64,000 bases of DNA from Vulcanimicrobiota bacterium (GCA_944322965.1 CALUQR010000008.1:4418-68417); one strand, 5' to 3'; positions 29,648 through 63,717 are shown, numbered from the stretch's first letter. Numbers and translations: made by a program. The notes: a model not told the origin generated them from the letters alone.

Positions 29648-30145
29648 CCTGCAAGAGCGTAATTAGGAATTCGGAATTCGTAATGCGTAATTGAGGGTTG
29701 CCGGCGGGAGGAGAGGTTGTGGCTCTAACTTTAGTTTCGTCGGTGACTTAAGGGCGAGAGGGCTTGGGGAAATATCTGGCGAGTTCCGGGGATTGCTTGG
29801 CTAGGGTGAAAATCGTTCTGGCGTGGCGCAGGGCGCCGGAAATGAGCTAGAGTGCAGGCTAAGGCGCGTTACGGGTTCGCGGGCTGCTTACGCGGAAGGA
29901 AGCGAAGTCAGTCGGCGAGTTTGCGTCAGCACTGTTTGAGCCGACAACTGAGCTGACCGAAGCCTGGTCGCCCGCTCGCCTGGACAGATTCCGAGCTCCG
30001 AGATTTATTCCAAGATGGAGGGCAGGTAGCGAAAGAAAGTGTCTCCCCACTTTCTGGAGCCTAGCTGCCCGCAATCGACGTAGAGCTCGGCTCGCATGGT
30101 CCAATTGGACAAGCGTCCTAAACTATCTCGGTCCATTAGTTACGG
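29648..30145. repeat. Composite repeat array B (inverted relative to the other arrays): heptamer tract, one long-form unit, a ~258-nt unique insert, then the palindrome
   Basis: 29659-29693 is CGTAATTAGGAATTCGGAATTCGTAATGCGTAATT. 29694-29817 is the reverse complement of the long-form core. GTCCAATTGGAC lies at 30099-30110, followed by AAGCGTCCTAAA. Confidence 0.85.
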
Positions 30146-42982: not shown

Positions 42983-44065
<1,083 letters not shown>

Positions 44066-44358
44066 TCAAGCTATTGAAAACTGGAAACTTTGTATACCGC
44101 GCCCGCGGGCGGGATGGTAACTAAAACTTACCCTTATCGGTGGCGCCACTTCGCTAGTAGAAAGCCTATTCCCCCTCTCTTATAAGGGGATAGAAGAGGA
44201 ATTTTTTGCCGCCCTAGACCCTATGGCCCGTACTCCCCCTCTACCCTACCCTTAAGGGGTAATGGAGGCCCTCTTCTAGGCTGCAAAAGAGCTGAAGTGC
44301 TAAAATTAGCTCCCCAATACGGGGGAATTGTGCGCTCTAAAAACGAAGGCCGCCACCT

Positions 44359-45582: not shown

Positions 45583-45612
45583 ATTCCAAAGAAGACGGCA
45601 AGGGAAGCTTAA

Positions 45613-46566: not shown

Positions 46567-46585
46567 AGGGAGGTCCTAAGATAGT

Positions 46586-47446: not shown

Positions 47447-48035
47447 AGTCCCAGCCCCCTTAAAGGCCCTCCTCTGGGGGGCCTTCTTCCTTTTGCTCCT
47501 CCCCTACCCCGCCCGGGCCGAAGTCTACCCCGAGCCCTATAAGTCGCCCGCCTATCTCCAAGCTTACTACCGGGCGGTGCGCTACTATAACCCTCGCTTG
47601 AGCGACCAGGAGAGCCGGCGCATCGTCTTGGCCCTCTTACATTACGCCCACTCTTACCGCCTCGACCCCCGCCTAGTGACCGCGGTCATCGCCTGCGAGT
47701 CCCACTTTAACCCCCGGGCCGTCTCCCCGGCGGGGGCCATAGGTTTAGCCCAGTTGATGCCCCAGACGGCCCGGGAGGTCAAAAGTAGCGACCCTTACAA
47801 TATCGATCTCAATATTCGCGGAGCCTGTTACTTACTAAAAAAGCATCTCTTAACTTACGGCTGGAGCCAGACCGCCAACTTGCTCCCCCCGCCCCCGGCC
47901 CTACTCTTAGCCCTGGCCGCCTACAACGCCGGCCCCGGAGCGGTAGAGCGCTATGGAGGGATCCCCCCCTATGCGGAGACCCAAAATTACGTGCGCCGAG
48001 TCTTAGAGGAGTATAGGCGCCTCTGTGGGGTGTGA
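47430..48035 (+). CDS. Lytic transglycosylase (SLT domain)
   Basis: Catalytic ES motif in ACESHFNPRAVSPAGAIGLAQLMP, plus AYNAGPG. Signal peptide present. Confidence 0.85.
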   Translation: MRLRVKVPAPLKALLWGAFFLLLLPYPARAEVYPEPYKSPAYLQAYYRAVRYYNPRLSDQESRRIVLALLHYAHSYRLDPRLVTAVIACESHFNPRAVSPAGAIGLAQLMPQTAREVKSSDPYNIDLNIRGACYLLKKHLLTYGWSQTANLLPPPPALLLALAAYNAGPGAVERYGGIPPYAETQNYVRRVLEEYRRLCGV

Positions 48036-48140
48036 GAGAAACTAGAAGGGCTAAATGGGCTCCTATAGCAGGACTCTAGGACCAATAGAGGCAAATAGGG
48101 CCCGATTTAGCGAGCGCTCTGCAAAAAGGGGAAATTAAAC

Positions 48141-49052
48141 GTGAAAATTTACCAGTGGCTTTTTACTCTGCTCCTCGGCCTGAGCTTGGCTGTAACTTTG
48201 CCTAGCTCGGCCCAGGCTCAAGAGCCCGCTCCCATGGGGGAGGAGATGGCCGGAGCTCTGCAAGCCTTTTACGCTGGCCAGTGGGATGAGTCTATCGCCC
48301 AATTTGAAAGTATCTTGGCCCAAGAGCCCCAAAATACCTTGGCTATGGCCTATATCTTAGACGCCTACTACCGCAAGAAGGATGTGGACGGCATCGTCAG
48401 CCAGATCGAGACGGAGACCGCCGCTACCGGCGAGTCGGGGGAGTCTCTGAGCAAGTTGGGGATGGCCTACTTCCTGCGCGGCAAGATCGTAGCTAACGTC
48501 TTAGATGAAGCTTTGACCGAGTTCCGGGCGGCGGTGGAGGCCGATCCTGAAAATTCCATGGCCTACTGCGGCATGGGTTTAGTCTACTTCCAAAAGCGCA
48601 TGATGCCCCGCGCCAAAGGTTTCTTCGTGCGCGCCCTGCGCCTCAACCCCCACGACGTCATGGCTATGGACCGTCTGGGCAATATCCTCTTAGTCGACGA
48701 GAAGAAGCCAGCTGAAGCTAGAGACGTCTACCAGCGCATCGTAGAAGAGTTGCCTACCTATCCCGACGGCCACTACTTTATGGGCTCCGCCCTCTACGAT
48801 ATGGGCCAGTTGGAGGAGGCTATCCCCTACTTAAAGCGCAGCGCGGAGTTAGATCCCCACGGTTACACCCAAGGTTTCGACGCTCTCACCCTCTGCGGCG
48901 ACATCTACCTCAAGACGGGACGCTTTCCGGAAGCCATCGCCATCTATGAGAGCGCCAAGAAGGTGCGCCCGGAGAGTACCTACGTCGACTACAAATTGAA
49001 GTTGGCCCGCGAGGGGAAGAGCGTTCCTCCCACTAAAGTCAACGATCATTAA
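48141..49052 (+). CDS. Secreted TPR-repeat protein
   Basis: Signal peptide ending SSAQAQE. Several TPR-like repeats. Confidence 0.7.
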   Translation: MKIYQWLFTLLLGLSLAVTLPSSAQAQEPAPMGEEMAGALQAFYAGQWDESIAQFESILAQEPQNTLAMAYILDAYYRKKDVDGIVSQIETETAATGESGESLSKLGMAYFLRGKIVANVLDEALTEFRAAVEADPENSMAYCGMGLVYFQKRMMPRAKGFFVRALRLNPHDVMAMDRLGNILLVDEKKPAEARDVYQRIVEELPTYPDGHYFMGSALYDMGQLEEAIPYLKRSAELDPHGYTQGFDALTLCGDIYLKTGRFPEAIAIYESAKKVRPESTYVDYKLKLAREGKSVPPTKVNDH

Positions 49053-49177
49053 GTAAATTCTTGCATCTAGAGGGGCCGCTCTTAGAGGTCTAAACCCTTT
49101 ATAGTAGAAGCCCCCCTGACAAGGAACTGGGAGGAGGGCGTCTTGAGGCCTTTCCTGCGCAGTTTTGTTATACATTC

Positions 49178-49975
49178 GTGAAGGAGTCTGGCTCTGTGAA
49201 AAAATTAATGCCCGCTTTAGCCTTGGGCGCTCTGCTATGGGCAGCGGCCCCTGCGGCGGCTCAGACCGGCCCGGACTACGACATGCGCTTCGAGCTAACC
49301 TACACCCCGTTGCGCATCTCTACGTCTGATCCCTCAGGCGTAGTCCACTCCAATATCAACGCCATTACGCTCAGCGGCGAAGGCCGAGTTTTCGAAGGCA
49401 TCATGTTCGGCGGAAGCTACACCTTCGGCGGTGGCAGCGACTTGGACGTAGTCGGTATAGATAGCGTCATGGGCGCACCGGTCACCTTCAACTGCAGCAG
49501 TCCTGAGTATAAGGACCTAGAAATTTACGCGAAGATCCCCTTTAACTTCAGAGAGTTCGGCGATCGCAGTCGCACTATGGATGGCCCCCCGGCCATGTCC
49601 CCCTTCTACGGTTATGTAGGCTATAAGAATACCAGCTTGACCTCTAAGTGGCCCGACGGCGCTGGTCTGACCGGAAAAGCAAACATAGAAAACTCGTCCG
49701 GTTTCGGCTTCGGTCTGGGCGCGGAGTTCGCCTGGGAACCTATCGGCCTCTACGGTCAGGCGGTATACTATCCGGCTATGATCACCAAGAACGTGGGCTT
49801 GGATGGCAATCCCGACGGCAAGTTGAACGTCTGGGAGTTGGATATCGGAATCCGCACTAACTTCAAAGATAGCCCCATCCAAGGGCGTATCGGTTACCAC
49901 TGGGAGACCCACAACGCTAGCAACGTCGATCTGCGCTATGACGGCATCCAGATTGGCGCCGTAGCTGAGTTCTAA
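49178..49975 (+). CDS. Outer-membrane beta-barrel protein
   Basis: Signal peptide AAPAAAQ, an alternating hydrophobic pattern, and a C-terminal aromatic residue (AVAEF). Confidence 0.7.
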   Translation: MKESGSVKKLMPALALGALLWAAAPAAAQTGPDYDMRFELTYTPLRISTSDPSGVVHSNINAITLSGEGRVFEGIMFGGSYTFGGGSDLDVVGIDSVMGAPVTFNCSSPEYKDLEIYAKIPFNFREFGDRSRTMDGPPAMSPFYGYVGYKNTSLTSKWPDGAGLTGKANIENSSGFGFGLGAEFAWEPIGLYGQAVYYPAMITKNVGLDGNPDGKLNVWELDIGIRTNFKDSPIQGRIGYHWETHNASNVDLRYDGIQIGAVAEF

Positions 49976-50007
49976 ACTCTTTAAAGTTATCTCCCTGACT
50001 TAATAAG

Positions 50008-50045
50008 TTTTGGCCCGCCCGGAAAGCTTTCCGGGCGGGCCAAAA
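50008..50045. terminator. Bidirectional terminator (perfect 38-bp palindrome)
   Basis: TTTTGGCCCGCCCGGAAAGCTTTCCGGGCGGGCCAAAA between convergent genes. Confidence 0.75.
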
Positions 50046-50062
50046 TTTATTAGACCGCTTTC

Positions 50063-50662
50063 TTACCAGGGCCTACGGTTATCTAAGGCCCGGGAGAGGG
50101 TCAGAGGGTCGGTATACTCTAAGTTGGCCCCTATGGGGAGGCCGCTAGCCAAACGGGTCAAGCGCACCCCCTTACCTTGGAGCAACTCCTTTAAGTAGAG
50201 GGCCGTAGCCTCCCCCGCTACGGTGGGATTAGTAGCTACGATAATCTCCTGGATAGGTTCCCTCTTTAAGCGCTCTAGGAGGGAAGCCAAATTGAGCTCC
50301 TCGGGACCGATCCCATCTAAGGGGGAGATTAGGCCCCCCAAGACGTGGTAGAGGCCCCGGTACTGGCCGGAATTCTCCATAGCCATCAGCTCCCTAGTAT
50401 TAGCTACTAGACAGAGAGTCTGGGGCTCGCGGTCGGGGTCCTGACAGATAGGGCAGAGCTCGCCCTCCGCCAGATTGCCACAACGCCTACAAGAGGTCAG
50501 CCTCTCCTTGACTTCCTTTAGCGCCTGGGCCAGAGCTTGGACCCGCTCTAAGGGGGCCTCCAAAAGGTGGAAGGCCAAGCGGGCCGCCGTCTTGGGGCCC
50601 ACGCTGGGCAAGTATTGCAACTCGCCCATCAAGCGCTCTAAAGAGCGCGGATACTTACTCAT
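50063..50662 (-). CDS. recR: Recombination protein RecR
   Basis: LPSVGPKTAARLAFHLL HhH, C4 zinc finger CRRCGN...CPIC, and a Toprim region. Confidence 0.95.
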   Translation of the reverse strand: MSKYPRSLERLMGELQYLPSVGPKTAARLAFHLLEAPLERVQALAQALKEVKERLTSCRRCGNLAEGELCPICQDPDREPQTLCLVANTRELMAMENSGQYRGLYHVLGGLISPLDGIGPEELNLASLLERLKREPIQEIIVATNPTVAGEATALYLKELLQGKGVRLTRLASGLPIGANLEYTDPLTLSRALDNRRPW

Positions 50663-50671
50663 AAACCCCTT

Positions 50672-50992
50672 TTAGAAGAGGCCCGGAGGTAAGTTGAGGC
50701 CCGCCGCCACCTTGCCCATACGGTTGGAAGAGAGCTGGCGCGATTTCTCTAAGCCGTCGTTAATAGCTACCAAGATCAGATCTTCTAACATCTCTACATC
50801 CTGGGGGTCGACTACCTCTTTAGAGATCTTGATCGAACGCAAGACCTGGGCCCCAGTTACCACCGCCTTAATAGCTCCGCCCCCGGCTACGCCCTCTACG
50901 GTAGCCTCTTCCAATTCCTTCTGAGCGTTGGCCAGGTCCATCTGCATCTTCTGCTGCATCTTCTGTACCTGTTTGAGGATCTGTTTTTGCAT
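50672..50992 (-). CDS. ybaB: Nucleoid-associated protein YbaB/EbfC
   Basis: 106 aa. MQKMQ...EGVAGGGAIKAVVTG...I...VDP.D.EMLEDLI, typical of the family. Sits upstream of recR. Confidence 0.9.
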   Translation of the reverse strand: MQKQILKQVQKMQQKMQMDLANAQKELEEATVEGVAGGGAIKAVVTGAQVLRSIKISKEVVDPQDVEMLEDLILVAINDGLEKSRQLSSNRMGKVAAGLNLPPGLF

Positions 50993-51074
50993 GCTCTACT
51001 CCCTTACATCTAGCGGCTCCGCCACCCCCAGTTGCGGAGCTCCACCTTAATCTCTGCCGCCCTTTCGCCCCCCT

Positions 51075-51548
51075 CTAGCCAAAGCCTCTCTCTAGAAACT
51101 CTACCCGCTCCAGCTGGAAATGGGAGCCCTCCACTTGCAAAATGACTAACTGCTTAGCTTGACCGCCCCGCGGCTCGCTGACGCTGCCCGGGTTGAGGTA
51201 GTAGACCCCATCTTGGAAATATTGCTGGAAGCGGTGGGTATGGCCAAAGACTACCAGTTGGATCTTGTGGGGATCGGGCTTAAAAGATAGGTAATTTATA
51301 TTGTGGATGACTAAGAGATGGAGCTCCTCCACCTGCAATAAGGCCTCTTTAGGGAGCTGGTCCGCCCACGGGCCCCAATCGCAATTGCCCCGCACCGCCG
51401 TCAGAGGGGCGATAAGCTCCAACTCCGCCAAAAGGCGCGGATCCTCCGTGTCCCCCGCGCAGACTATATAATCGACACCCGCCAGGCGCTCTAAGACCCG
51501 CTCCTCTAAATGGCGGTGGATATCAGAAATTAAGGCTACTCGTTTCAC
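51075..51548 (-). CDS. Metallophosphoesterase (YfcE/MJ0936 family)
   Basis: Motifs SDIH, GD, GNCD and GHTH. Confidence 0.85.
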   Translation of the reverse strand: MKRVALISDIHRHLEERVLERLAGVDYIVCAGDTEDPRLLAELELIAPLTAVRGNCDWGPWADQLPKEALLQVEELHLLVIHNINYLSFKPDPHKIQLVVFGHTHRFQQYFQDGVYYLNPGSVSEPRGGQAKQLVILQVEGSHFQLERVEFLERGFG

Positions 51549-51775
51549 TTTTTAGCTTCCACAATATTGACGCTCCCATTTTCGGGATCGAAGATTAAAC
51601 GCAACTGGCCGCTACGCAAGCGCTTTTCTACGCTAGCTATGCGCCGCTCTAAAGGCCAGTCGCACTCATATCCGCCCCTAGTTACGTACTCCTCTAAGAC
51701 CCCGCGCCGAGCCTCTAAACTCAAGCGCTCCCAGGGTACCTCTATTAACTGGCCCTCCTGGCCCTCAGCTGGCAA
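51545..51775 (-). CDS. YheU (UPF0270) family protein
   Basis: IEVPWERLS...LEEYVTRGG...ERRIASVEKRLRSGQLRLIFDPENGSVNI parallels E. coli YheU. I prefer the TTG at 51775 (AGGGAGG 8 nt upstream). The ORF track extends to 51898. Confidence 0.55.
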   Translation of the reverse strand: MPAEGQEGQLIEVPWERLSLEARRGVLEEYVTRGGYECDWPLERRIASVEKRLRSGQLRLIFDPENGSVNIVEAKK

Positions 51776-51926
51776 CTCTCCCACCTCCCTAACCCCCCAC
51801 CCCAAAGTAGGACCTAAACTAAAAATCCTGATACCTGAAGCCCCGCAAAACCCCTGCCTAAAAGGGGGGACTAGCCCCCAACTAGAAGGCCCCGCCACTA
51901 CCTACTAGCGAAATGAGGCCCTCCCC

Positions 51927-52994
51927 ATGCCCAGCTATATTAGCGGCCAATTGCCAGGGATCGGCGGCCAGCTGCGCCGCTACCCCCAAGATTTCCGAGT
52001 CCAAGAGATCCCCGCCTACCCGCTCTGCGGTCAGGGCGAACATCTCTTTATAGAGATCACTAAAGAGGGGATCACCACCCAAGCCGCTATCTCCGAGCTG
52101 GCCCAACGTTTAGGGATCCCCGCTAGCTCTATAGGTTACGCGGGCCTTAAAGATCGCCAAGCGATGACGACCCAACGCCTCTCCCTCCCCGCCTGCGCCT
52201 GGCCGGGCGCCACCTCCGACTTAGAGCCTAAAGCTTGGCCCCTCCTCCCCGACTTAAGCTTCCAGGTGGAGATCTTAGGGCTACACAATAATAAACTGAA
52301 GACCGGTCACCTGCAGGGTAACCGCTTCGCTATCCGAGTGCGCCAGGCTAACCCCCGCTGGCCCCAACTGGTCCCCCCCATCCTGCAGGCCCTGCGCCGC
52401 CACGGGATGGCCAACTTCTACGGGCCCCAGCGCTTTGGACGCCAAGGGGATAACGCCCTCAAAGGGCTAGAGGGACTGCGCCGCGGTTATCTCCCCGGCC
52501 CCAAGTGGCGCAAGTGGCTCCTCATCTCCGCCCTCCAATCCCAACTCTTTAACCGCTGGTTAGAGGAGCGGATAGCCGACGGACTCTTTGAAAAAGCTAT
52601 CATAGGCGACGTCTTTGGGAAATTGCCCCAAGGAGGAATCTTCTACTCTCTGGAGCCCCAAGCTGAGCAGCCCCGCTTGGAGGCCTTCCAAATTAGCCCC
52701 ATGGGTCCCATCTTCGGCTACAAGATGTTTAAAGCCCAAGGGGAGGCTCTGGAGCGGGAAGAGCGGATCTTAAAGGAAGCGGATATAAAATTGGAAGAGT
52801 TCCGGGCCCTCAAAGCGGAGGGGAGTAGGCGTAGAGCCCGCCTGCCCGTCGAGGACTTAGAGATCTGCGATCTAGAGGGCGACCCCCTCTTCACCTTCAC
52901 TCTGCCCGCCGGCAGTTACGCCTCCGTCTTAGTAGGCGAATTTATGAAGAGCGACTTAGCCCCCAGCGAAGAGGACGAAGTCGATAGCGAGTGA
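51927..52994 (+). CDS. truD: tRNA pseudouridine(13) synthase TruD
   Basis: GEHLF, catalytic YAGLKDRQA, NFYGPQRFG, and LSALQSQLFN. Confidence 0.9.
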   Translation: MPSYISGQLPGIGGQLRRYPQDFRVQEIPAYPLCGQGEHLFIEITKEGITTQAAISELAQRLGIPASSIGYAGLKDRQAMTTQRLSLPACAWPGATSDLEPKAWPLLPDLSFQVEILGLHNNKLKTGHLQGNRFAIRVRQANPRWPQLVPPILQALRRHGMANFYGPQRFGRQGDNALKGLEGLRRGYLPGPKWRKWLLISALQSQLFNRWLEERIADGLFEKAIIGDVFGKLPQGGIFYSLEPQAEQPRLEAFQISPMGPIFGYKMFKAQGEALEREERILKEADIKLEEFRALKAEGSRRRARLPVEDLEICDLEGDPLFTFTLPAGSYASVLVGEFMKSDLAPSEEDEVDSE

Positions 52995-53006
52995 GGTCTA
53001 GTCGCC

Positions 53007-53999
53007 GTGAAGAAGCAGACCCTGCTCCTAACTTTGCGCCGCCATTTCCGCTTCTGGGTCCTAGTAGTGGCCGATGTAGTACGCAATTTTATCCGGGACG
53101 ACTGCGCCTTTATGGCGGCCGGTATCGCCTTCTACGCCTTCCTCTCCCTCTTCCCCATGTGCCTAGTCCTAGTCTCCTTCTTCGGCTGGGTGCTCTCTAT
53201 CGATTGGATCCACCAGCAGGTAGTCTTGGGCTTCTCCCAACTGAATATCATCCCCTTAGAGGAAAAATCGGGCACGGGACTGACCTACACCAGCGAGTTA
53301 GTGCGCCAACTCCTGCCGGCTACTAGCGAATGGATCGTGCGTGAACTCTCCGTCCTGGCCGAACATATCGGGCGCAACGTCCTCATCTCCGTCGTCGTAG
53401 GCCTCTGGTCGGGCCGCCATATGTTTGTAGCTATGGAATATGGCTTACAGAAGATCTGGAACCTCAGGACCCAGCGCAATTGGTTCTCCAGTAACTTAGT
53501 GAGTATGTATCTCATCTTAGTTACGGGGCTAGTCTTCACCGTGCTCCTGACCTTCACCGGGGTGATGAGTATCGTCCAGAATGTGATCGCCAACTTCAAC
53601 TTGCCCAGCTTTATGGGCTTCTCTATCGACCAGGCCATGCTCTGGAATTGGGTAGTCTCCTGGATCATGATCCCCCTAGGGGCCAGCACCCTCTTCCTCA
53701 TGATGTACCGCCTCCTCCCCTCCGAGCCCCTCCCCGTAGCCTACCTCCTCCCGGGCGCCATCTTCTCCGGCCTAGCCTGGAAATTGTCGGGCCTAGCCTA
53801 CGTCACCTACGGCGAAAAATTCGGCCAAGTCTCCGCCTTCTACGGTTCAATCTGGTACCTCGTCGGCCTTATGACCTGGCTCTATATCGTAGCCGTCGTC
53901 TTCCTCCTAGGCGCCGAAGTAGTCCACGCCTACGCCTACCAACAAAAGCTCCAAACACACTTTTTTCGAATTCGGAATTCGGAATGCGGAGTGAGCTAG
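53007..53999 (+). CDS. YihY/BrkB-family membrane protein
   Basis: AAGIAFYAFLSLFP start and a 6-TM pattern. The last ~12 codons and the stop lie inside repeat array C. Confidence 0.8.
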   Translation: MKKQTLLLTLRRHFRFWVLVVADVVRNFIRDDCAFMAAGIAFYAFLSLFPMCLVLVSFFGWVLSIDWIHQQVVLGFSQLNIIPLEEKSGTGLTYTSELVRQLLPATSEWIVRELSVLAEHIGRNVLISVVVGLWSGRHMFVAMEYGLQKIWNLRTQRNWFSSNLVSMYLILVTGLVFTVLLTFTGVMSIVQNVIANFNLPSFMGFSIDQAMLWNWVVSWIMIPLGASTLFLMMYRLLPSEPLPVAYLLPGAIFSGLAWKLSGLAYVTYGEKFGQVSAFYGSIWYLVGLMTWLYIVAVVFLLGAEVVHAYAYQQKLQTHFFRIRNSECGVS

Positions 54000-54103
54000 C
54001 CGCCGAAGGCGGCTAGCAATGCGGAATGCGTAATGCGTAATGCGGAATTAGATGGCGCTTGTTAGTGGCTTAGCGGATCCGGAAATAGCTGGACACACGG
54101 GAG

Positions 54104-54383
54104 AATCGCTGGCAGTTTCACTGCCCTAAATCTAATTCGGAATGCGCTAGCCGCCGGGACGGCCGGCGGCAATTCGGAATGCTTAGTTCGTAATTCGGAA
54201 TTAAGTCTCTACTTGTTAATGACTTGGCGGATCCGGAAATAGCTGAGCATACGGGAAAATCGTTGGCAGTTTCACTGCCTTTTGAGGGCTCTGGTTTGGC
54301 GCTTTGATGCTGGCGCTCAGATCTTAGATTTGTGTTCTGTTCCCTCATGAAGGCCTTTAGGACGCTTGTCCAATTGGACCGCG
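54104..54383 (+). repeat. ~280-bp segment X, copy 1 (short unit + centre + palindrome), near-identical to 57802-58087
   Basis: Direct alignment by eye shows only a few substitutions across ~280 bp. Confidence 0.9.
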
Positions 54384-54579
54384 GCGCGCGCCGCACACCA
54401 AGACGATTTTCTCCCCAGCCAAGTAACCTGCGGAATCAGCCGGTCATTTTCCCAGCTATCTCGCCCCTAAGTCCCGCCAAAACAAAAGTTAGGGCCACAG
54501 CCTACCTTCCCGGCTGTAGCCCCTAATTCCGAATTACGAATTCCGAACTACGCATTGCCCCCCTGCCGCCAAGTAAGTC

Positions 54580-54609
54580 TTGCGACAACCAAGGTTCCGG
54601 TTGTATACT
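54580..54609 (+). promoter_or_regulatory. Putative sigma70 promoter of rpn copy 1
   Basis: TTGCGA, 18 nt, TATACT. The same arrangement is conserved upstream of copy 2. Confidence 0.5.
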
Positions 54610-54656
54610 ATCCCCAGCGATAACTTAACTTCGACACGTATAAAGGGGGGATAGAT

Positions 54657-55649
54657 TTGGGCCACGATTCTAGTTACAAGAAGTTTTTTAGTCGCACCGA
54701 TATGGTTGAGTCACTGGTGCGAGATTTTATTTCCGGTGATCTAGCCGACGAACTCGACTTTAAGACCCTGAAGCTGATGCCTACCGTTTTTCAAAAACAT
54801 GGACAGACGGAACGGCGTGGCGATCTTATTTGGCGGCTCAAATGGAGAGACGGTAGTCCTTGTCTTTTGGCCATACTTTTAGAGTTTCAGAGTACTATCG
54901 ATAAGAAGATGCTCTGTCGATTACTGGAATATGCCACTCTCTTCTTAGAGCAAACCTTGGACGATGATAAGAGCAAAGGGCTGTCTTTGCCGCAAATTTT
55001 GCCCATTGTGCTCTACAATGGCGCCAAACCTTGGAGCGCGCCTTGCGTTTATAACGAGTTGTCGGAGCGCGAAAGGCTAGCTTATGAGCGCGGCATTTGG
55101 GATTTCAAATACCATTTAATTGACATTCGCCACCTAGAAGAATCTCTAGTAGATAAAGCTAAAGGTATCAGCGCATGGATCTTTCGCTTTGAACGAGCTG
55201 CAAGTGTCCAGGATATGGAGCGACTCTGGAGAGTGATGTTCCGCGCTCTAAGGAATCCAGCTTATGAAAATTTGCGCCAAGAGATTATAATGTGGCTAGA
55301 GACCTGCGTCTTGCCAGTCCGCAAAATATCGGGCGCTAAAATAGTTATAGAACGTTTGAAGGAGGAAGAGAAGATGACCGTAGTTACCGCCGAAATGGAG
55401 GACTGGACCCTCCCCTACATCAACCAAGGAATCAAACAAGGCCGCGCCGAAGGTGAGGCACGTGGCCTCGCAGAGGGAGAACGTATAGGCTTGAGTAAGG
55501 GAAGACGCGAAGGCGAAGCCAAAGGCATAGCCGAGAAAGCGGCCCAAGTCATCCGCCAAATGATCGCTGAAGGTTTTGAAGATAATCTAATCGCCAAATT
55601 AGTCAGCGTTCCCTTATCCGAAGTCAAAAAACTACGTCTACAAATCTAA
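54657..55649 (+). CDS. Rpn-family recombination-promoting nuclease / putative transposase (YhgA-like PD-(D/E)XK N-domain, DUF4351-like C-tail), copy 1
   Basis: HDSSYKKFF...TLKL...GDLIWRL...LLEFQST...M..RLLEY parallels E. coli RpnA/YhgA. TTG start after GGGGGGA. GC looks lower than in the neighbouring genes. Confidence 0.88.
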   Translation: MGHDSSYKKFFSRTDMVESLVRDFISGDLADELDFKTLKLMPTVFQKHGQTERRGDLIWRLKWRDGSPCLLAILLEFQSTIDKKMLCRLLEYATLFLEQTLDDDKSKGLSLPQILPIVLYNGAKPWSAPCVYNELSERERLAYERGIWDFKYHLIDIRHLEESLVDKAKGISAWIFRFERAASVQDMERLWRVMFRALRNPAYENLRQEIIMWLETCVLPVRKISGAKIVIERLKEEEKMTVVTAEMEDWTLPYINQGIKQGRAEGEARGLAEGERIGLSKGRREGEAKGIAEKAAQVIRQMIAEGFEDNLIAKLVSVPLSEVKKLRLQI

Positions 55650-56239
55650 TTCGGAGTAGGCTAGCCGCCGGGACGGCGGCTTAGCAATGCGGAATGCTTA
55701 ATGCGTAATGCGGAGTGTTCCGGCGGAAAAACCGCCGGAACAATTTGGGATGCGTAATGCGTAGTTCGGAATTAGATGGCTCTTGTTAGTGGCTTAGCAG
55801 ATCCGGAAATAGCTGGACACACGAGAGAATCGCTGGAGGCTTCGCCTCCCTTGCGGCGCGCTCCGCGCCGCACACTCCCAGCGATTTCCCCCCAGCCAAG
55901 CTACCTTCGGAACCAGTCAGCAACTAACTCCTTGCCATCTCGCCCCTACCCCACCGCAAAAACTAAAGTTAGAACCACACCCTCTCCCTCAGCCGCGCCA
56001 CCCCCAATTACGCATTACGCATTCCTAATTCCGAATTGCCCTCCCGCCGCGTCCCTCCTAATTCCGAATTACGAATTCCGAACTACGCATTACCCCCACT
56101 ACCCTCAATTCCGAATTACGCACTCCGAATTACGCATTACCGCCTCCGGCGGCAACATAAGTCTTGCGGCAACTAAGGTTACGGTTGTATACTCTCTCTA
56201 GCGGAAACTTAACTTCGATACGCGCAAGGGGGGATAGAT
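55650..56239. repeat. Composite repeat array D: hairpins and heptamers, 1 short unit (+), GC hairpin, 1 long unit (-), long heptamer tracts, promoter
   Basis: 10-bp-stem hairpin GTTCCGGCGG-AAAAA-CCGCCGGAAC at 55717-55741. GCGGCGCG-CTC-CGCGCCGC at about 55853-55871. Heptamer tracts at 56006-56140. Confidence 0.9.
56164..56193 (+). promoter_or_regulatory. Putative sigma70 promoter of rpn copy 2
   Basis: TTGCGG, 18 nt, TATACT. Syntenic with 54580-54609. Confidence 0.5.
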
Positions 56240-57232
56240 TTGGGCCACGATTCTAGTTACAAGAAGTTCTTTAGTCGCACCGATATGGTTGAGTCACTGG
56301 TGCGAGATTTTATTTCCGGTGATCTAGCCGACGAACTCGACTTTAAGACCCTGAAGCTGATGCCTACCGTTTTTCAAAAACATGGACAGACGGAACGGCG
56401 TGGCGATCTTATTTGGCGGCTCAAATGGAGAGACGGTAGTCCTTGTCTTTTGGCCATACTTTTAGAGTTTCAGAGTACTATCGATAAGAAGATGCTCTGT
56501 CGATTACTGGAATATGCCACTCTCTTCTTAGAGCAAACCTTGGACGATGATAAGAGCAAAGGGCTGTCTTTGCCGCAAATTTTGCCCATTGTGCTCTACA
56601 ATGGCGCCAAACCTTGGAGCGCGCCTTGCGTTTATAACGAGTTGTCGGAGCGCGAAAGGCTAGCTTATGAGCGCGGCATTTGGGATTTCAAATACCATTT
56701 AATTGACATTCGCCACCTAGAAGAATCTCTAGTAGATAAAGCTAAAGGTATCAGCGCATGGATCTTTCGCTTTGAACGAGCCGCTAATGTTCAGGAGATG
56801 GAGCGACTTTGGAAAGTGATGTTCCGCGCTCTCAAGAATCCAGCTTATGAAAATTTGCGCCAAGAGATTATAATCTGGCTAGAAACCTGTGTCTTGCCAG
56901 TCCGCAAAATATCGGGGGCAAAGATCGTTGTAGAACGTTTAAAGGAGGAAGAAAAGATGACCGTAGTTACCGCCGAAATGGAAGACTGGACCCTCCCCTA
57001 CATCAACCAAGGAATCAGACAAGGCCACGCCGAGGGAAGATTAGAGGGTGAGCGCATAGGCGAACTTAGAGGAAGACGCGAAGGAGAGCGCATCGGGGAG
57101 GCTAAGGGGATAGCGGAAAAGGCGGCTCAGGTCATCCGCCAAATGATCGCTGAGGGATTTGAGGATAACTTAATTGCCAGATTAGTCAGCGTCCCCTTAT
57201 CAGATGTGGAAAAACTCCGCCTACAAATCTAA
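56240..57232 (+). CDS. Rpn-family recombination-promoting nuclease / putative transposase, copy 2
   Basis: 330 aa. The first ~181 codons are identical to copy 1 apart from one synonymous change. The C-terminal third diverges. Confidence 0.88.
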   Translation: MGHDSSYKKFFSRTDMVESLVRDFISGDLADELDFKTLKLMPTVFQKHGQTERRGDLIWRLKWRDGSPCLLAILLEFQSTIDKKMLCRLLEYATLFLEQTLDDDKSKGLSLPQILPIVLYNGAKPWSAPCVYNELSERERLAYERGIWDFKYHLIDIRHLEESLVDKAKGISAWIFRFERAANVQEMERLWKVMFRALKNPAYENLRQEIIIWLETCVLPVRKISGAKIVVERLKEEEKMTVVTAEMEDWTLPYINQGIRQGHAEGRLEGERIGELRGRREGERIGEAKGIAEKAAQVIRQMIAEGFEDNLIARLVSVPLSDVEKLRLQI

Positions 57233-58454
57233 TTAGGAGTAGGCTAGCCGCCGGGACGGCGGCTAGCAATGCGGAATGCGGAATGTTCCGGCGGAAAAAC
57301 CGCCGGAACAATTCGGAATGCGTAATGCGTAGTTCGGAATTAAGTGGCTCTTGTTAATGACTTGGCAGATCCGGAAGAAACTTGGCCCATGAGAGAATCG
57401 CTGCGGTTTCACCGCGCCAAAGCTAATCCGGAATGCTTAGTGCGTAATTCGGAATTAAGTTTCTGCTTGTTAATGGCTTGGCGGATCCGGAAGTAGCTTA
57501 AACTATGGAAGAATCGCACTGGGTGCTTGAGCGCCTAATTCTTAGGTTTGTGCTCCGTTACTTGAGTGAGGCTAAATCTAATTCGGAGTGCGTAATGCGC
57601 AATGCGGAGTTAAGTGACTATTGTTAGTAGCTTGGCAGATCCGAGAATAACTTGGCCTATGAGAGAATCGCTGCGGTTTCACTGCGCCGAATCTAATTCG
57701 GAATGCGGAATTCGGAATTAGGGAAGTAAGATGCCGCCTGAAGGCGGCGGTTTAAGTTGCAGCTTGTTGGTAACTTGGCAGATCCGAAAGTAGCTGAGTA
57801 CACGGGAGAATCGCTGGCAGTTTCACTGCCTTTAGTCTAATTCGGAATGCGCTAGCCGCCGGGACGGCCGGCGGCAATTCGGAATGCTTAGTTCGTAATT
57901 CGGAACTAAGTCTCTACTTGTTAATGACTTGGCGGATCCGGAAATAGCTGAGCATACGGGAAAATCGTTGGCAGTTTCACTGCCTTTTGAGGGCTCTGGT
58001 TTGGCGCTTTGATGCTGGCGCTCAGATCTTAGATTTGTGTTCTGTTCCCTCATGAAGGCCTTTAGGACGCTTGTCCAATTGGACCGCGCGGGCTGCGGCT
58101 AACGCACTCCTAATTCCGCATTGTTTCCCCGCCAAGCCACTCACGGAATCAGCCGGTCATTTCCCCAGCCGTCTCGCCCCTAACTCCTGCCGAATCCCCA
58201 GTTAGAGCCATAACCTCTCCCCTGGCCGCGCCACCCCCAATTACGCATCACGCATTCCTAATTCCGAATTGATCTTCCCCCCAGCCAAGCCCCCTCGGAA
58301 CCAGTCAGCAACTAACTCCTTGCCATCTCGCCCCTACCCCACCACAAAAACTAAAGTTAGAGCCACAACCTCTCCCCCTGCCGCGCCTCCCCAATTACGC
58401 ATTACGCATTCCTAATTCCGAATTGCCCTCCCGCCGCGCCACCCCAATTCCGAA
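57233..58454. repeat. Composite repeat array E: 5 short-form units (+), centre segment, palindrome, 2 long-form units (-) and heptamer tracts running into the whiA 3' end
   Basis: GATCCG(G/A)A cores at about 57370, 57484, 57630, 57781 and 57935. GTCCAATTGGAC at 58072-58083. Long cores at about 58100-58260 and 58270-58410. Confidence 0.9.
57802..58087 (+). repeat. ~280-bp segment X, copy 2
   Basis: Near-identical to 54104-54383. Confidence 0.9.
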
Positions 58455-59411
58455 TTACGAATTCCGAATTACGCATTGTTGTAATCGGCGGTTGAGGGTG
58501 GTGCGGGAGAGGGGTGGATCGCAAAGTTGGCAGAGTTCGCTGAGGGTGGCTTCGGGGTTTTCTAATCTCAGGCGGGCTACGTTTTGGAGTTGGGGCGACA
58601 GTTGGTCGAGGGCGCCGCTCTCTTGTAATTCTCGGAGCTTGGCGATCTGGCGGGCGGCGGCTAGGCTGGAGCGGGCGATATTGGCGCTTTCGGCGTTGAC
58701 GCGGCGGCGCACTTCGTTGCGAGTCTCCTTGAGGGCCCGCACCTCTTCGAATTGGAGTCGCGCCAGTTGGGCTCCGATGACGCTCAGAGCTTGGGCCACC
58801 TCTTCGGCCCGTTTGAGGCTAACTACCCAACGCCTACGCCGTTGGGCCATTTGGGGGTTAAACCCCTCTAACTCTAGGGCGATCTTGACCTTCTCAGCTA
58901 AATAAAGCCGGGGCAGGGCCCACTCTAATAGGTACCCTTTCTGAGGGTCGCTCAAAGCCCCAAAGCGCAAAAAGAGGGCCCCCAACCAATGGCGCCGGCA
59001 ACAGAGTTTGAGGGTCAGATTCTTGTGGGGTCCCAAGCTAAAGTGGAGCTCTTCCCGTTCCTCAGCCTGATCTCCAGAGGTGCGGGTAGCTTGATGGCTC
59101 AGACAGTAGTGCAAGGTCCGGCGCACTTTGCTCAATTTGGGTAGGTCGATAAGTTTTAAGATATAGCGGCTAGCCACCCGTCCGGAGCGGGTCCAGAGGA
59201 ACTCTATCTCTAGGCTGCGCAAGACCTTAATAGCCCATTGGGCCAATTCTAGGGAGCTAAAGACTAAGACCGGCCCCGGATAAGAGCGCAGGGTGCGAGC
59301 CCCTTCCAAAAGGGCGGCTAAGATATAGCGCCGACAGCAGGAAGGGGGCCGATGGCGGGCGATCTGGGCCCGCACTTGACTGGCAAAAGAGGGCTGGCGC
59401 TCGGAGCTAAT
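58455..59411 (-). CDS. whiA: DNA-binding protein WhiA (probable non-AUG start)
   Basis: C-terminal HTH LSELCQLCDPPLSRTTLNRRL. The N-terminal SFASQVRAQIA...CC..Y matches the WhiA N-terminus (B. subtilis MSFASETKKEL...) but lies upstream of the first GTG (59375). The frame opens at 59423, and the only candidate start is the ATT at 59411. Confidence 0.8.
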   Translation of the reverse strand: MSSERQPSFASQVRAQIARHRPPSCCRRYILAALLEGARTLRSYPGPVLVFSSLELAQWAIKVLRSLEIEFLWTRSGRVASRYILKLIDLPKLSKVRRTLHYCLSHQATRTSGDQAEEREELHFSLGPHKNLTLKLCCRRHWLGALFLRFGALSDPQKGYLLEWALPRLYLAEKVKIALELEGFNPQMAQRRRRWVVSLKRAEEVAQALSVIGAQLARLQFEEVRALKETRNEVRRRVNAESANIARSSLAAARQIAKLRELQESGALDQLSPQLQNVARLRLENPEATLSELCQLCDPPLSRTTLNRRLQQCVIRNS

Positions 59412-62199
59412 CTTCCTCCTCCTTTAGGTCCTCTTCCGTGGAGTCGGTAGGCAAGTTCTCGTAGAAATCGGTATAATCTTCGCTTTCTACCTCGCGCTCC
59501 TGGTCCTCGTCCGCCTCTGACAGTTGGGCCGCCCCTTGCGCTTGGAGGGCGGTCACGCTCTCCGCCTGGGGCTCTGTCTCGGGCAGCTCTTCTAACTGCA
59601 GATCCTTAGTCACTACGGGGGCTACGCCAATTACCCGGTCCTCTTCGGCCACATTGATAAACTTGACCCCCGAGTTACCGCGGTGGCGCAAGCTCACCCC
59701 CTGGACGGAGGTGCGCAAGGTCACCCCTTGCAGGGTGGAGACCATCAATTGGCCGTGGGGATCGACTACTAAGGCCGCAGCCACCGGCCCCGTCTTGGGG
59801 GTAACTCTCATCCCCCACACTCCGCGCGCGCGCCGCCCTTTATAGTTGAACTCGCTCAAACGGAGCCGCGTCCCCATCCCGCGCTCACTGACTAAGAGCA
59901 ACTGCCCGCCGTGGGTATCGGAACCTAAACCCACGATAGAGTCGCCCGGCCAGAGGGTAATACTCAAAACCCCGCGCGCGCTGCGCCCTTGGAGGCGCAC
60001 TGAGGACTCGGCAAAACGCAGGACCCGCCCTTGGGCGGTCACGATAAAGAGCGAAGGCTTGGCGCTCGGTTGGGCGGCTTCAGCTTCGGCTGCGGCCTCC
60101 TCTTCGGCGCTAGCCCCCTCCTCTAAGGCCCCAGACTCCTCGACGTTAGTAAGCTCTTCGCCCTCCTCTAAGGCCGACTCTTCGCCCTCAGACTCTTCGG
60201 CCGTAGGCGCCTCGCTCTCTTCAGCCTCCCCTTCCCAACTAGAGTAGAGGGCGCTAAGCAGGGCGTCCCCTTCCGTTAAGATGAGGGCCCGCTTCCCGCG
60301 CGAGGGAATATGGAGGAATTCCGCTAAGGGGGTGCGCTTAATATACCCTTGTTGGGTGAGGGTAATGATGGAGCCGCTAGTTACGGCCGAGTCCAGAGGT
60401 ATAACTACTACCACCTTCTCGCCGGGCGCCAAGTTGAGCAGGTTGACTAGAGCCATCCCCATCGAGCCCCGCTTATTGCTGGGCAGTTCGTAGACCTTCA
60501 ACTTGTAGATGCGCGCCTGGTCGGTCAGGAAATAGAGCGTATCGTGGGCCCGGCAGGTGAAGAGCTGGACTAAGGAGTCGTCCTGCTTCAATTTCAGACT
60601 GCTGCGCCCCCGCCCTCCGCGCCCTTGGGCCCGGTACTCGGAGAGTCCTACCCGCTTAATGTAGCCGGTGCGGGACATAGTAACTACCATCTGTTCGTTA
60701 CTAATGAGATCTTCGATGGCGATCTCTTCCCCTTCGGCGGAGAAGATACGCGTCCGCCGAGGGTCGGAGTAGCGCATCTGCAGTTGGACTAACTCGTCGC
60801 GAATAGCCCCATCCAATTTGCGGCTATCCCCTAAGAGCTCTTGGCAGTAGGCGATAGTGCGCAATAAGTTCTGGTGCTCGGCGCTAAAACGCTCAAATTC
60901 TAGGCCGGTCAAGCGCTGCAGGCGCATATCTAAGATAGCTTGGGCCTGGATCTCGCTGAAGGCGTAAGTCTCCATCAGCTGGTTGCGGGCGCTATCGACG
61001 GTCGCTGAGTTTTCGATAATCTCAATAATCTCGTCGATATGTTCCAAAGCTTTTAAGAGGGCCTGGACGATATGGTCGCGGGCCAGAGCCTTATCCAGTT
61101 CGTACTGGGTACGGCGGCGCACCACTTGGCGGCGGTGGTCCAGGTAGAGGGAGAGGGCCTCTTTTAAGCTTAAAAGGCGGGGCACGTCTTGGACTAAGGC
61201 CAGCATGATGACGCTATAATTAGTCTGCAGGCGCGTATGGGCTAAGAGCCTATTGAGGACGACTTTGGCGTTGGCATTTTGGGCCAGCTCGATGACGATG
61301 CGCATCCCCTTGCGGGAGGACTCGTCGCGCAGATCGCTGATGCCAGTGAGGGTCCCCTCATTGACTTTGGCGGCGATCTCCTCTACCAACTTGGCCTTAT
61401 TGACCTGGTAGGGTATCTCGGTGACGATAATAGCCTGTTTGCCGGGGCGCACCTCTTCGATATTAGTTACCGAGCGCACCTTAATAGAGCCTCGCCCGCT
61501 GCGGTAGGCCTCGCGGATCCCATTCTGACCGCAGATAATAGCTCCGGTGGGGAAATCGGGGCCGGGGATATAGCCCATCAATTCTTCGACGCTAATTTCC
61601 GGCTTCTCTAAGAGGGCCAGGACCCCATTTAAGACCTCGCGCAAGTTGTGGGGGGGTATCTTAGTGGCCATCCCCACGGCGATCCCTTCGGAGCCGTTAA
61701 TAATGAGGTTGGGCAATAAGGCGGGGAGCACCACCGGCTCTTGGGTAGAATTATCGAAATTGGGACGCCAATCGACCGTATTCTTGCCCAGATCGCGGAT
61801 CATCTCCATAGAGATACGGGCCAATTTGGCCTCCGTATAGCGCATGTGGGCGGGCGAGTCGCCATCGACGGAGCCGAAGTTACCCTGAGGCCAGACTAGG
61901 GGGTAGCGCGTATTGAAGGGCTGAGCTAAGCGCACCATAGCGTCGTAGACGGCGCTATCGCCATGGGGATGGTAGCGGGCGATGACATTACCCACCGTGG
62001 AGGCCGACTTGCGGAACTTGCGGTCGGGGGTAATATGCTCCTCGAACATGGTGTAGAGGATGCGCCGGTGCACGGGCTTAAAACCGTCGCGCACGTCGGG
62101 CAGGGCTCTAGCGACGATGACGCTCATGGCGTAATCGACGTAGGCCTCCTTCATCCCATCCTCAATAGAGAGGGGCAGTATCTGCTGACGCTCACTCAT
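59407..62199 (-). CDS. gyrA: DNA gyrase subunit A (full length, with an acidic insertion in the CTD and an acidic tail)
   Basis: [18 protein letters not shown], catalytic Tyr in HMRYTEAKL, and a GyrA-box-like QGRGGRG at the start of the beta-pinwheel CTD. Confidence 0.95.
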   Translation of the reverse strand: MSERQQILPLSIEDGMKEAYVDYAMSVIVARALPDVRDGFKPVHRRILYTMFEEHITPDRKFRKSASTVGNVIARYHPHGDSAVYDAMVRLAQPFNTRYPLVWPQGNFGSVDGDSPAHMRYTEAKLARISMEMIRDLGKNTVDWRPNFDNSTQEPVVLPALLPNLIINGSEGIAVGMATKIPPHNLREVLNGVLALLEKPEISVEELMGYIPGPDFPTGAIICGQNGIREAYRSGRGSIKVRSVTNIEEVRPGKQAIIVTEIPYQVNKAKLVEEIAAKVNEGTLTGISDLRDESSRKGMRIVIELAQNANAKVVLNRLLAHTRLQTNYSVIMLALVQDVPRLLSLKEALSLYLDHRRQVVRRRTQYELDKALARDHIVQALLKALEHIDEIIEIIENSATVDSARNQLMETYAFSEIQAQAILDMRLQRLTGLEFERFSAEHQNLLRTIAYCQELLGDSRKLDGAIRDELVQLQMRYSDPRRTRIFSAEGEEIAIEDLISNEQMVVTMSRTGYIKRVGLSEYRAQGRGGRGRSSLKLKQDDSLVQLFTCRAHDTLYFLTDQARIYKLKVYELPSNKRGSMGMALVNLLNLAPGEKVVVVIPLDSAVTSGSIITLTQQGYIKRTPLAEFLHIPSRGKRALILTEGDALLSALYSSWEGEAEESEAPTAEESEGEESALEEGEELTNVEESGALEEGASAEEEAAAEAEAAQPSAKPSLFIVTAQGRVLRFAESSVRLQGRSARGVLSITLWPGDSIVGLGSDTHGGQLLLVSERGMGTRLRLSEFNYKGRRARGVWGMRVTPKTGPVAAALVVDPHGQLMVSTLQGVTLRTSVQGVSLRHRGNSGVKFINVAEEDRVIGVAPVVTKDLQLEELPETEPQAESVTALQAQGAAQLSEADEDQEREVESEDYTDFYENLPTDSTEEDLKEEED

Positions 62200-62202
62200 A
62201 AT

Positions 62203-63717
62203 TTACTCCTCCCCCTCCTCTAGCGGCTCTTCTTCCCCCTCTTGGGGCAGGTTAGCCGTCAAGATGCGGGTCCGGCGCGGATCGCCGTAGCGGGCTTTGA
62301 TCTCTAAAAGCTCAGTCTCTAAAAGCTCGTTCATCTTGAGGCGATTATTTAAGAGCTCCTCTAAGCGGGCGATAGTAGCCTCCAATTGGCGGGCCTCCTC
62401 TTCCAGCTTATTGCGCTCTAAGTGGGTGAGGCGCTGCAGGCGCATATCTAAGATGGCCTGGACTTGGGCTTCACTAAATTGGTAGCGCTCTTGCAACCCG
62501 CGCCTAGCCTCTTCCGTCGTCTTGGAGGCCTTGATGAGGGCGATAATCTCGTGGATATGGAGCAGCGCTTTGAGCAGTCCCTGAACGATATGGAGGCGCG
62601 CTTTAGCTTTGGCCAGTTCGTACTGGGTGCGGCGGGTAACCACCTCCAGGCGGTGATTTAAGAAGCAGTCCAGCGCTTGGCGCAAGTTGAGGATGCGGGG
62701 AGCGTTATCTACTAGGGCCAACATGATGATCCCGTAGGTAGTCTCTAAGTTGGTAGCGCTCAGAAGTTCCCGCTCTACCTGCTGGGGATCGGCCTTCTTT
62801 TTGAGCTCGAAGACGATGCGGATCCCCTTGCGGGAGGACTCGTCGCGCAGGTCGGCCACCCCGTTGATCTTCTTCTCCCTAATAGCTTGGGCCGCCCGCT
62901 CTACCAGACTGGCCTTATTGACCATGTAGGGGATCTCTTCCACAATGAGCGCTTGGCGCCCGCCCTCTTGCTCCTCTAAGCGCAGGCAGGAGCGCACCGT
63001 AATCTTGCCCCGCCCGGTGCGGTAGGCCTTCTCGATACCCGCCCGCCCTACGATCTGAGCGCCGGTGGGGAAGTCGGGCCCCTGGACGTACTCCATCAGC
63101 CCCTCGATAGAGATCTGGGGGTCCTCTAAGATAGCTACGCAGGCCTCAATAATTTCGCTCAAATTGTGGGGCGGGATGCGGGCGGACATGCCCACGGCGA
63201 TCCCCTCCGAGCCATTAATGAGCAAGTTGGGGATGACTAAGGGCAAGACGACCGGCTCTTGGGTAGAGTTATCGAAGTTAGGGCGCCAATCGACCGTATC
63301 CTTATCTAAATCGCGCACCGTCTCCATGGCTATGGGGGCCAACTTAGCCTCCGTATAGCGCATGTGGGCGGCCGGGTCCCCGTCTAAGGAGCCGAAATTA
63401 CCTTGGGGCCAGACTAGGGGATAGCGCATATTGAAGGGCTGGGCTAAACGCACCATGGCGTCGTAGACGGCGCTATCGCCGTGAGGATGGTAACGGGCGA
63501 TGACATTACCTACCGTAGCCGCCGATTTGCGGAACTTGCGCTCCGGGGTAATGCGCTCTTCGAACATAGTGTAGAGGATGCGCCGATGTACGGGCTTAAA
63601 GCCGTCCCGAGCGTCGGGCAGGGCCCTGGAGACGATGACGCTCATGGCGTAATCGACGTAGGCCACCTTCATCTCATCTTCGATGGGGGCCGCGGTCACA
63701 ATCTTACTCTCTGACAT
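62203..63717 (-). CDS. gyrA: GyrA paralogue made up of the N-terminal breakage-reunion domain only (no CTD)
   Basis: 504 aa, colinear with residues 1-~495 of the downstream gyrA, including HMRYTEAKL. It ends at DPRRTRI plus a short acidic tail. Stop TAA, then ATT, then the ATG of the next gene; GGAGGAG lies within its own last codons. Confidence 0.85.

Follow-up and report, generated by a model that had tools for sequence, protein, structure and literature searches.

Genes of the Rpn family, which encode PD-(D/E)XK nucleases, are widespread, multi-copy and horizontally mobile, and their mode of movement and duplication is an open question. They have been reported without identifiable terminal inverted repeats and with variable ends, and are said to move by recombination or hitchhiking (PMC10400941). 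We analyzed a stretch of 64,000 nt from a Vulcanimicrobiota bacterium (GCA_944322965.1 CALUQR010000008.1:4418-68417), referred to hereafter as the window, in which an island at 53965-58480 (locus A) contains two rpn genes with three copies of a mosaic repeat module, designated E, around and between them. In the source species at least nine rpn genes are distributed over six loci whose flanking genes are unrelated and, in contrast to the published genes, 9 of 9 occupy a like, fixed slot between inverted modules. The arrangement is an exception to the reported absence of flanking repeats, and a possible case of recombination or hitchhiking (PMC10400941).

The two Rpn proteins of the island resemble RpnL/RpnS, the toxin-antitoxin and antiphage nucleases of E. 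coli and other bacteria (PMC5350276, PMC10400941), with which they share the Pfam domain and the D..D..E-x-Q constellation. PF04754 (Transposase_31, YhgA-like) was their sole Pfam match (E values of 1.3e-24 and 2.3e-24; residues 3-200 on positions 3-194 of the 203 in the profile), which bears out a first-pass annotation of the window that had described a tandem pair of 330-aa YhgA/Rpn genes; both are on the + strand. A match to TIGR01784 fell under the family cut-off. The putative catalytic residues D4 (in an HD motif), D56, E76 and Q78, read from the sequence, correspond to D11, D63, E82 and Q84 of RpnA (PMC5350276), and their spacing fits. The C-terminal, presumably helical region contains (E/R)G-rich four-residue repeats that differ in number and sequence among paralogues and strains, and both genes have an in-frame ATG at codon 240, 8 nt past AAGGAGG; variable C-terminal four-residue repeats and an internal in-frame start with a strong ribosome-binding site are likewise found in RpnL/RpnS (PMC10400941). 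Also common to both are several paralogues per genome, tandem duplicates and lower GC, and the GC content of 0.445-0.47 across most of rpn1 and rpn2, compared to 0.56-0.63 in the adjacent genes, agrees with what had first been noted. The putative RpnS open reading frame (ORF) includes the variable repeat region. On this evidence the proteins appear to match the arrangement of an RpnL/RpnS toxin with an intragenic antitoxin. A central protein segment is near-identical in all paralogues, while the N-terminal domain of the protein at P0044 is divergent. No sequence match was found among solved structures, and no Rpn relatives were found in viral contigs.

The layout of a nuclease-type gene between inverted, structured, species-specific repeats, with solo copies elsewhere, is also that of repetitive extragenic palindromic (REP) sequences and the REP-associated tyrosine transposases (RAYTs), which the first-pass annotation had named as the precedent. 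The precedent is good for the layout, but RAYT belongs to the HUH Y1 (IS200/IS605 TnpA-like) transposases and Rpn to the PD-(D/E)XK nucleases. REPs measure 20-40 nt and are present in hundreds of copies, whereas E modules are mosaics of 0.5-1.3 kb, and RAYT is usually single-copy per REP family, compared to at least nine rpn genes here. The system is therefore not a REPtron in its protein, repeat size or gene copy number, although the likeness in layout stands. Bacterial interspersed mosaic elements (BIMEs) of enterobacteria and BOX elements of Streptococcus pneumoniae are mosaic extragenic repeats. E modules are like them in kind, with no sequence relation, in having units in fixed order and alternating orientation, a variable internal unit number and strong predicted structure, and in being extragenic, often at gene 3' ends, and restricted to one species. 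They differ in being much larger, based on heptamer tracts, concentrated at one gene family and arranged in cassette-like arrays. Chromosomal integrons (Vibrio VCR) also alternate palindromic repeats with single-gene cassettes, many of them toxin-antitoxin or defense genes, in either orientation; in contrast, E modules are ten times larger and their arrays are short (one to three cassettes) and scattered over at least six loci. Neither a Phage_integrase-type gene in the gene tables of the six loci nor an attC-like site of 60-140 nt was found. In type III toxin-antitoxin systems (ToxIN-like) short tandem repeats of the same sense lie directly upstream of the toxin gene, whereas the units directly upstream of rpn have the opposite sense and the toxin here is from a DNA nuclease family. 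The explanation we favor, with roughly even chances of being right, is that E modules are BIME- or BOX-like palindromic mosaic repeats that act as portable homology for rpn cassettes.

The E module and the rpn slot

Profiles for the short (S), long (L) and centre (C) units were built from the window with nhmmer. They identified nine S units of ~83 nt, all on the + strand, and eight L matches of ~160 nt, of which seven are on the - strand (one of these an overlapping partial) and the eighth, on the + strand, is a solo unit at 29.7 kb. Three C segments of ~100 nt each end in the 12-bp palindrome GTCCAATTGGAC. The heptamer pattern AATKCGKAATKCG matched 72 times in the window, compared to 0.4 expected, and a 27-nt core of the S unit 7 times, compared to 0 expected. 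Each E module reads, in order, GC hairpin, heptamers (+), one to five S units (+), an optional C segment, L units (-; one or two in the window and up to three elsewhere), heptamers (-) and GC hairpin. The first-pass annotation had given a single fixed order for every spacer, from S units (+) through the centre, the 12-bp palindrome or a GC hairpin, L units (-) and heptamers to TTGCG(A/G)-18-TATACT. This was true of spacers 1 and 3; spacer 2 lacks the centre and has the GC hairpin only. Inverted heptamer tracts border each module and the island as a whole, and every module forms a large, imperfect palindrome. The single-stranded forms of E1 and E2 fold better than dinucleotide shuffles, with the z scores shown in Table 1, and the heptamer arms pair. 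Among 25 distinct copies of the S unit, the terminal hairpin changes sequence but compensatory changes in 4 of its 5 pairs keep it paired; elsewhere in the unit it is the primary sequence that is conserved. Identity between units is mostly 70-85%, suggesting that they are old and did not arise in a recent burst.

Classic restriction sites in the form of 6-bp palindromes are dense in the modules at 53900-58600. The heptamers contain GAATTC, every S unit GGATCC, the centre palindrome CAATTG and the hairpin stems GCTAGC; CCGCGG and GCGCGC are also present.

The gene slot between diverging units that had been proposed is real: each rpn gene lies at a point of divergence between two modules, and on either side of it the heptamers come closest. 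In agreement with the first-pass annotation, the stop codon of rpn1 lies within ATCTAATTCGGA, a motif that also links successive S units; that of rpn2 lies within ATCTAATTAGGA, which has one mismatch to it. The proposed third slot without a gene (57233-58454) is instead the terminal module of the array. The neighboring genes run into the repeats as well. The stop codon of the BrkB-like gene is inside the first heptamer/hairpin stretch (53965-53999), which supplies its last codons, and the whiA ORF ends inside the last heptamer tract (58455-58480), which supplies both its last codons and its stop. C-terminal lengths vary among strains, with BrkB at 326, 330 or 338 aa and WhiA at 306 or 312 aa. 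On the 5' side, AAGTCTTGCG is kept upstream of both rpn1 and a 36%-identical paralogue. The promoter-like TTGCGA-18-TATACT matches the consensus at 9 of 12 positions, which alone is not significant.

Association of the modules with rpn genes

Association was assessed in ~123 kb of non-redundant sequence from the source species. Within it, 67 of the 73 units lie no more than 1.5 kb from an rpn gene, and 20% of the sequence is that close to one. Units are clustered and paralogues related, so that the nominal p-value is inflated, but the pattern is still clear locus by locus. The units are thus not evenly spread over the sampled sequence; an even spread was one of the outcomes that the first-pass annotation had named as counting against its proposal. 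Over 9-10 kb to the left and right of the rpn loci the host genes were free of units, and many other intergenic spacers in the 123 kb are without them. At 9 of 9 rpn genes the units on both sides point away from the gene. The paralogue rpn3, 36% identical, is embedded in the same way in the opposite orientation. A lattice at positions 1-780 of the window at first appeared to be a counter-example, but is explained by a second tandem rpn pair directly before position 1 on a contig of the same species (L019), of which it is the terminal module. At locus E, an orphan-looking N6/N4 DNA methyltransferase gene adjoins the array (L023 11882-12667).

Exact or near-exact copies of the proteins were found only in gut-type metagenome assemblies of ENA and Logan and in the NCBI metagenome-assembled genome GCA_964312305.1. 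The closest named relatives of RecR are from Candidatus Bruticola (71-73% identity), which places the organism, an uncultured bacterium of the animal gut, in class Xenobia of the Vulcanimicrobiota (Eremiobacterota). The S pattern had no match in 185,579 GTDB species genomes, JGI metagenomes or IMG/VR, from which the source species is apparently absent, and 20 kb sampled from Ca. Bruticola held neither S, L or C units nor heptamers. Abundance of the repeats in relatives, the other computational outcome named as counting against the proposal, was therefore not seen over this sample. In an unrelated organism, a gene for a 38%-identical Rpn is separated from its neighbors by tight spacers on an element that carries a relaxase, and no lattice surrounds it. 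E constitutes a previously undescribed family of mosaic repeats, from a Vulcanimicrobiota gut lineage that has hardly been studied.

Comparison of positions 44000-53000 of the window with Ca. Bruticola (L161, GCA_051874695.1) showed that the order SBP-permeases-SLT-TPR-RecR-YbaB-Metallophos-UPF0270 is kept, at a GC content of 45% in Ca. Bruticola compared to ~56% here. Synteny ends exactly at the end of UPF0270, which is followed by dnaX in Ca. Bruticola and by truD, brkB, the rpn island and whiA in the window. The Ca. Bruticola locus was considered as a true empty site and rejected, as it is rearranged at the relevant point.

Exchange between copies, solo modules and the alternatives

Tandem rpn copies evolve in concert. 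The genes rpn1 and rpn2 are identical over nucleotides ~30-510, their promoters are ~80% identical, and the region of four-residue repeats is strongly divergent. In one strain (L156; 10875-11867 and 12458-13450), both copies carry the stop W148* and four identical substitutions relative to the window, which is direct evidence of gene conversion between tandem copies. The part corresponding to RpnS in L156 is still open, a pattern that suggests concerted evolution with possible loss of the toxin and retention of the antitoxin. The near-identical central segment that all paralogues share, beside the divergent N-terminal domain at P0044, is a further sign of recombination. Exchange between loci is indicated at loci B and C, where units and centre are 95-98% identical against a background of 70-85%, suggesting that it was recent.

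The number of units per module at locus A varied among 11 assemblies. E1 occurs as SLL, SSCL, SSSLL and SSCSLL and E3 in forms from SSCL to SSSSSCLL, whereas the module between rpn1 and rpn2 is near-invariant (S-L, 580-590 nt). Unit gain or loss next to rpn genes had been suggested as a test of the original proposal; what was observed is that array instability tracks tandem copy number and not proximity to rpn, as expected from unequal exchange. The pair formed by rpn3 and an rpn2-like gene is joined to locus A in L009 (12480-14518), whereas in L022 (9376-13017) its neighbors are type II secretion genes on one side and a gene for a 612-aa protein on the other. A third rpn inserted into spacer 3 was considered for L009 and dropped, since L022 has the same pair in another context.

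Modules also occur without rpn genes. In the relic at 29661-30122 of the window, heptamers and the L unit directly follow a gene's stop codon, and the centre fragment has the palindrome at 30099-30122 (-); this spacer is of equal length in 3 of the 4 strains shown, and the remaining strain has 7 nt less. L022 contains two solo modules (1035-1700 and 15039-15400), of which one is complete and the other partial, both directly 5' of promoter-like sequences and upstream of what appear by eye to be tRNA genes. The one at 1035-1700 is preceded by a perfect hairpin with a 19-bp stem on GCCGCCTCCGGCGGC, with heptamer-like arms.

Two slots adjoining those of rpn hold other genes: one for a 133-aa protein with a glycine-zipper C-terminus (L019 2199-2600, -) and one for a 290-aa RTX-repeat protein (L164 8399-9271, -; HemolysinCabind, E value 1.6e-17). 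These two genes have in common a 5' leader of ~130 nt and the first residues MSIxSxN. Together with rpn3 they read against the polarity of the lattice, as expected from inversion between inverted heptamer tracts. Both are small and toxin-like, and their slots are equivalent to those of rpn.

Heptamer tracts are common to many phyla. A scan for three copies of AATKCGK gave at least 120 stretches in genome contigs, and the matches listed come from cyanobacteria, Acidobacteriota, Planctomycetota, Clostridia, Bacteroidota, Chloroflexota and others. Tracts of at least three copies of AATTCGT, AATTCGG or AATGCGG are intergenic in these phyla, in Nostoc, Calothrix and Oscillospiraceae among others. 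The tracts are frequently paired in inverted orientation, with a short loop or a gene in between, and related AATTNNN heptamers lie nearby. No Rpn, no S, L or C unit and no recurring neighbor family was found in the 8-kb stretches around the 120 matches listed, and heptamers as a signature of Rpn were therefore rejected. Literature searches gave no paper with the heptamer strings and no relevant one on heptamer repeats.

With homologous modules on both sides of each cassette, recombination and gene conversion could duplicate the cassette in tandem. The recombination might be ordinary or Rpn-stimulated, with Rpn's own recombination-promoting activity perhaps helping. The same processes could copy a cassette into another module, flip it and homogenize paralogues, and unequal exchange between tandem S or L units would alter the length of the array; sequence-specific recognition of the repeats by Rpn would not be required. 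Most of the cargo consists of lower-GC genes for putative RpnL/RpnS-type toxic nucleases with intragenic antitoxins. We infer that rpn genes spread by means of the modules, with a contribution from Rpn activity. If so, the modules would constitute a repeat-scaffolded cassette system for defense genes that needs no integrase. Several points weigh against portable homology. It leaves unexplained why rpn rather than other genes is the dominant cargo. Sampling was rpn-centred except for the 64-kb window, so that the ratio of solo to loaded modules holds for the sampled loci and not genome-wide. The main rpn clade may go back to a single ancestor located between modules from the start, in which case the independent associations may number only two rpn lineages and two non-rpn cargo genes. 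L009 may reflect either rearrangement through the repeats or chimerism of the metagenome assembly, and neither a recombination intermediate nor an empty and filled pair at one locus was found in the sampled loci.

The first-pass annotation had proposed a cognate nuclease-repeat system. In such a system Rpn would recognize a structure of the module, for example the 12-bp palindrome, a heptamer tract or a GC hairpin that follows GTAG-like bases, and would cut there and so spread or amplify the modules and its own genes in the manner of REP/RAYT or a homing nuclease. The concentration at rpn genes on which the proposal was based is borne out, and the strength of the co-localization favors it, as does the presence of two rpn lineages only 36% identical in the same type of slot. 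Inverted units flank the genes with heptamers nearest, as REPs do around RAYT genes, the hairpins are conserved by structure, and the S pattern was not found outside the source species, in which this rpn clade expanded. The claim that Rpn binds, cuts or spreads the repeats is weakened by the solo modules, the non-rpn cargo and the finding that the module between two rpn genes is the most stable. In addition, the heptamer tracts of many phyla have no Rpn in the stretches listed, rpn is present in at least nine copies where RAYT is usually single, the units are diverged and old, and insertion leaves both flanking modules intact, unlike classical homing. RpnA itself cuts DNA in vitro with little or no sequence specificity (PMC5350276). 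None of the results requires a cognate system. We consider such a system unlikely, and equally view as rather unlikely that Rpn of this clade is an active partner that cuts hairpin, heptamer or palindrome and drives the copying of modules and cassettes. Should Rpn act on the modules, it would be the first PD-(D/E)XK counterpart of REP/RAYT and would provide a mechanism for rpn mobility and duplication.

The modules might instead be selected as regulatory or insulating elements, serving as terminators in both directions, as stabilizers of mRNA ends or as antisense sources that silence toxic cassettes and insulate them from their neighbors. Such a role would fit the BrkB, WhiA and rpn ORFs all stopping in a heptamer/hairpin stretch, the last S unit before the centre forming a hairpin followed by a T run, and the units facing away from the gene on both sides, but we regard it as improbable. 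A promoter and terminator scan found no excess over shuffled sequence (8 terminator-like sites compared to 5.7 expected), Rfam returned no RNA family in the window at the gathering threshold, or in the region in an E-value scan, bar one tRNA elsewhere, and 0.5-1.3 kb with up to five tandem units is far beyond the needs of termination; solo modules, moreover, lie upstream of apparent tRNA genes. Different cargo in either orientation, palindromic modules resembling an oversized attC with inverted heptamer ends, and solo modules in generic intergenic positions would be expected if a site-specific recombinase or transposase encoded elsewhere services the array, either as in an integron or with the modules as miniature inverted-repeat transposable elements whose terminal inverted repeats are the heptamers, rpn being frequent cargo. 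This is highly improbable. All six loci lack a gene for an integrase or for a DDE or HUH transposase within 10 kb, and only a small HTH_Tnp_1 ORF was seen, near one partial module. No target-site duplications were recognized, the ends merging into heptamer tracts of variable length, and module size and internal copy number are highly variable. Least probable, in our estimate, is passive co-accumulation, in which repeats and dispensable, horizontally acquired rpn genes persist in the same permissive intergenic regions with no link between them. That rpn is dispensable, both copies being nonsense mutants in one strain, and that modules occur without rpn are in its favor. A strictly conserved polarity with heptamers nearest the gene at 9 of 9 genes, the exact coincidence of the rpn stop codon with the module start, and the many spacers in the 123 kb that have no units are difficult to reconcile with it.

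Feature coordinates and neighboring genes

The features of locus A are listed in Table 1 in order of position, followed by the other lattices, the rpn loci of the source species and examples of heptamer tracts elsewhere.

Table 1. Positions of repeat units, genes and rpn loci. Positions are those of the window unless a contig or a neighboring gene is named.
Feature	Position	Strand	Remarks
BrkB/YihY-like gene	53007-53999	+	left neighbor of island
E1	53965-54562		imperfect palindrome; fold z -7.8
E1 heptamers	53969-53996		
E1 GC hairpin	53995-54017		
E1 heptamers	54018-54045		
E1 S unit	54048-54129	+	
E1 hairpin	~54147-54170		
E1 heptamers	54171-54198		
E1 S unit	54202-54283	+	
E1 centre	54281-54379		GTCCAATTGGAC at 54368-54379
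E1 L unit	54382-54536	-	
E1 inverted heptamers	54522-54556		
Promoter-like TTGCGA-18-TATACT 5' of rpn1	54580-54609	+	sequence reading
rpn1	54657-55649	+	RpnL-type PD-(D/E)XK nuclease gene, 330 aa; TTG start after GGGGGG
Putative intragenic RpnS antitoxin ORF in rpn1	55374-55649	+	91 aa; from sequence, compared with PMC10400941
E2	55644-56155		without centre; fold z -8.35
E2 GC hairpin	55660-55685		
E2 heptamers	55686-55713		
E2 hairpin	55717-55741		
E2 S unit	55772-55852	+	
E2 GC palindrome	55853-55871		
E2 L unit	55860-56017	-	
E2 inverted heptamer tracts (three)	56003-56138		followed by terminal GC hairpin
Promoter-like TTGCGG-18-TATACT 5' of rpn2	56164-56193	+	sequence reading
rpn2	56240-57232	+	330 aa; PF04754 match
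Putative RpnS start in rpn2	56957	+	sequence reading
E3	57227-58480		terminal module; hairpins and heptamers
E3 S units	57340, 57456, 57610, 57753, 57907	+	
E3 centre	57986-58084		
E3 L units (two)	58091-58404	-	
E3 inverted heptamers	58390-58477		
whiA	58455-59375	-	right neighbor of island
Terminal E, right-hand part	1-780		centre, one S (+), three L (-), heptamers, hairpins
Solo relic	29661-30122		heptamers, one L unit (+, 29681-29819), centre fragment; no rpn near
rpn locus A	BrkB-WhiA		two genes
rpn locus B	upstream of Na+/H+ exchanger		two genes
rpn locus C	P0044		one gene
rpn locus D			rpn3 (36%-identical paralogue) and rpn2-like gene, convergent
rpn locus E	P0023		one gene
rpn locus F	P0029		one gene
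Heptamer-tract example	L052 2643-2725		
Heptamer-tract example	L074 6683-6780		
Heptamer-tract example	L045 6413-6995		

Beyond whiA, the window carries at 59407-63717 (-) a full-length gyrA (930 aa), then a truncated gyrA-like gene (504 aa, N-terminal domain only) and then gyrB. The N-termini of gyrA and its gyrA-like neighbor are closely alike, and the arrangement is kept in all strains seen. An unrelated tandem repeat of 81 nt (2.4 copies, 76% matches) lies at 19542-19733, between two convergent genes.

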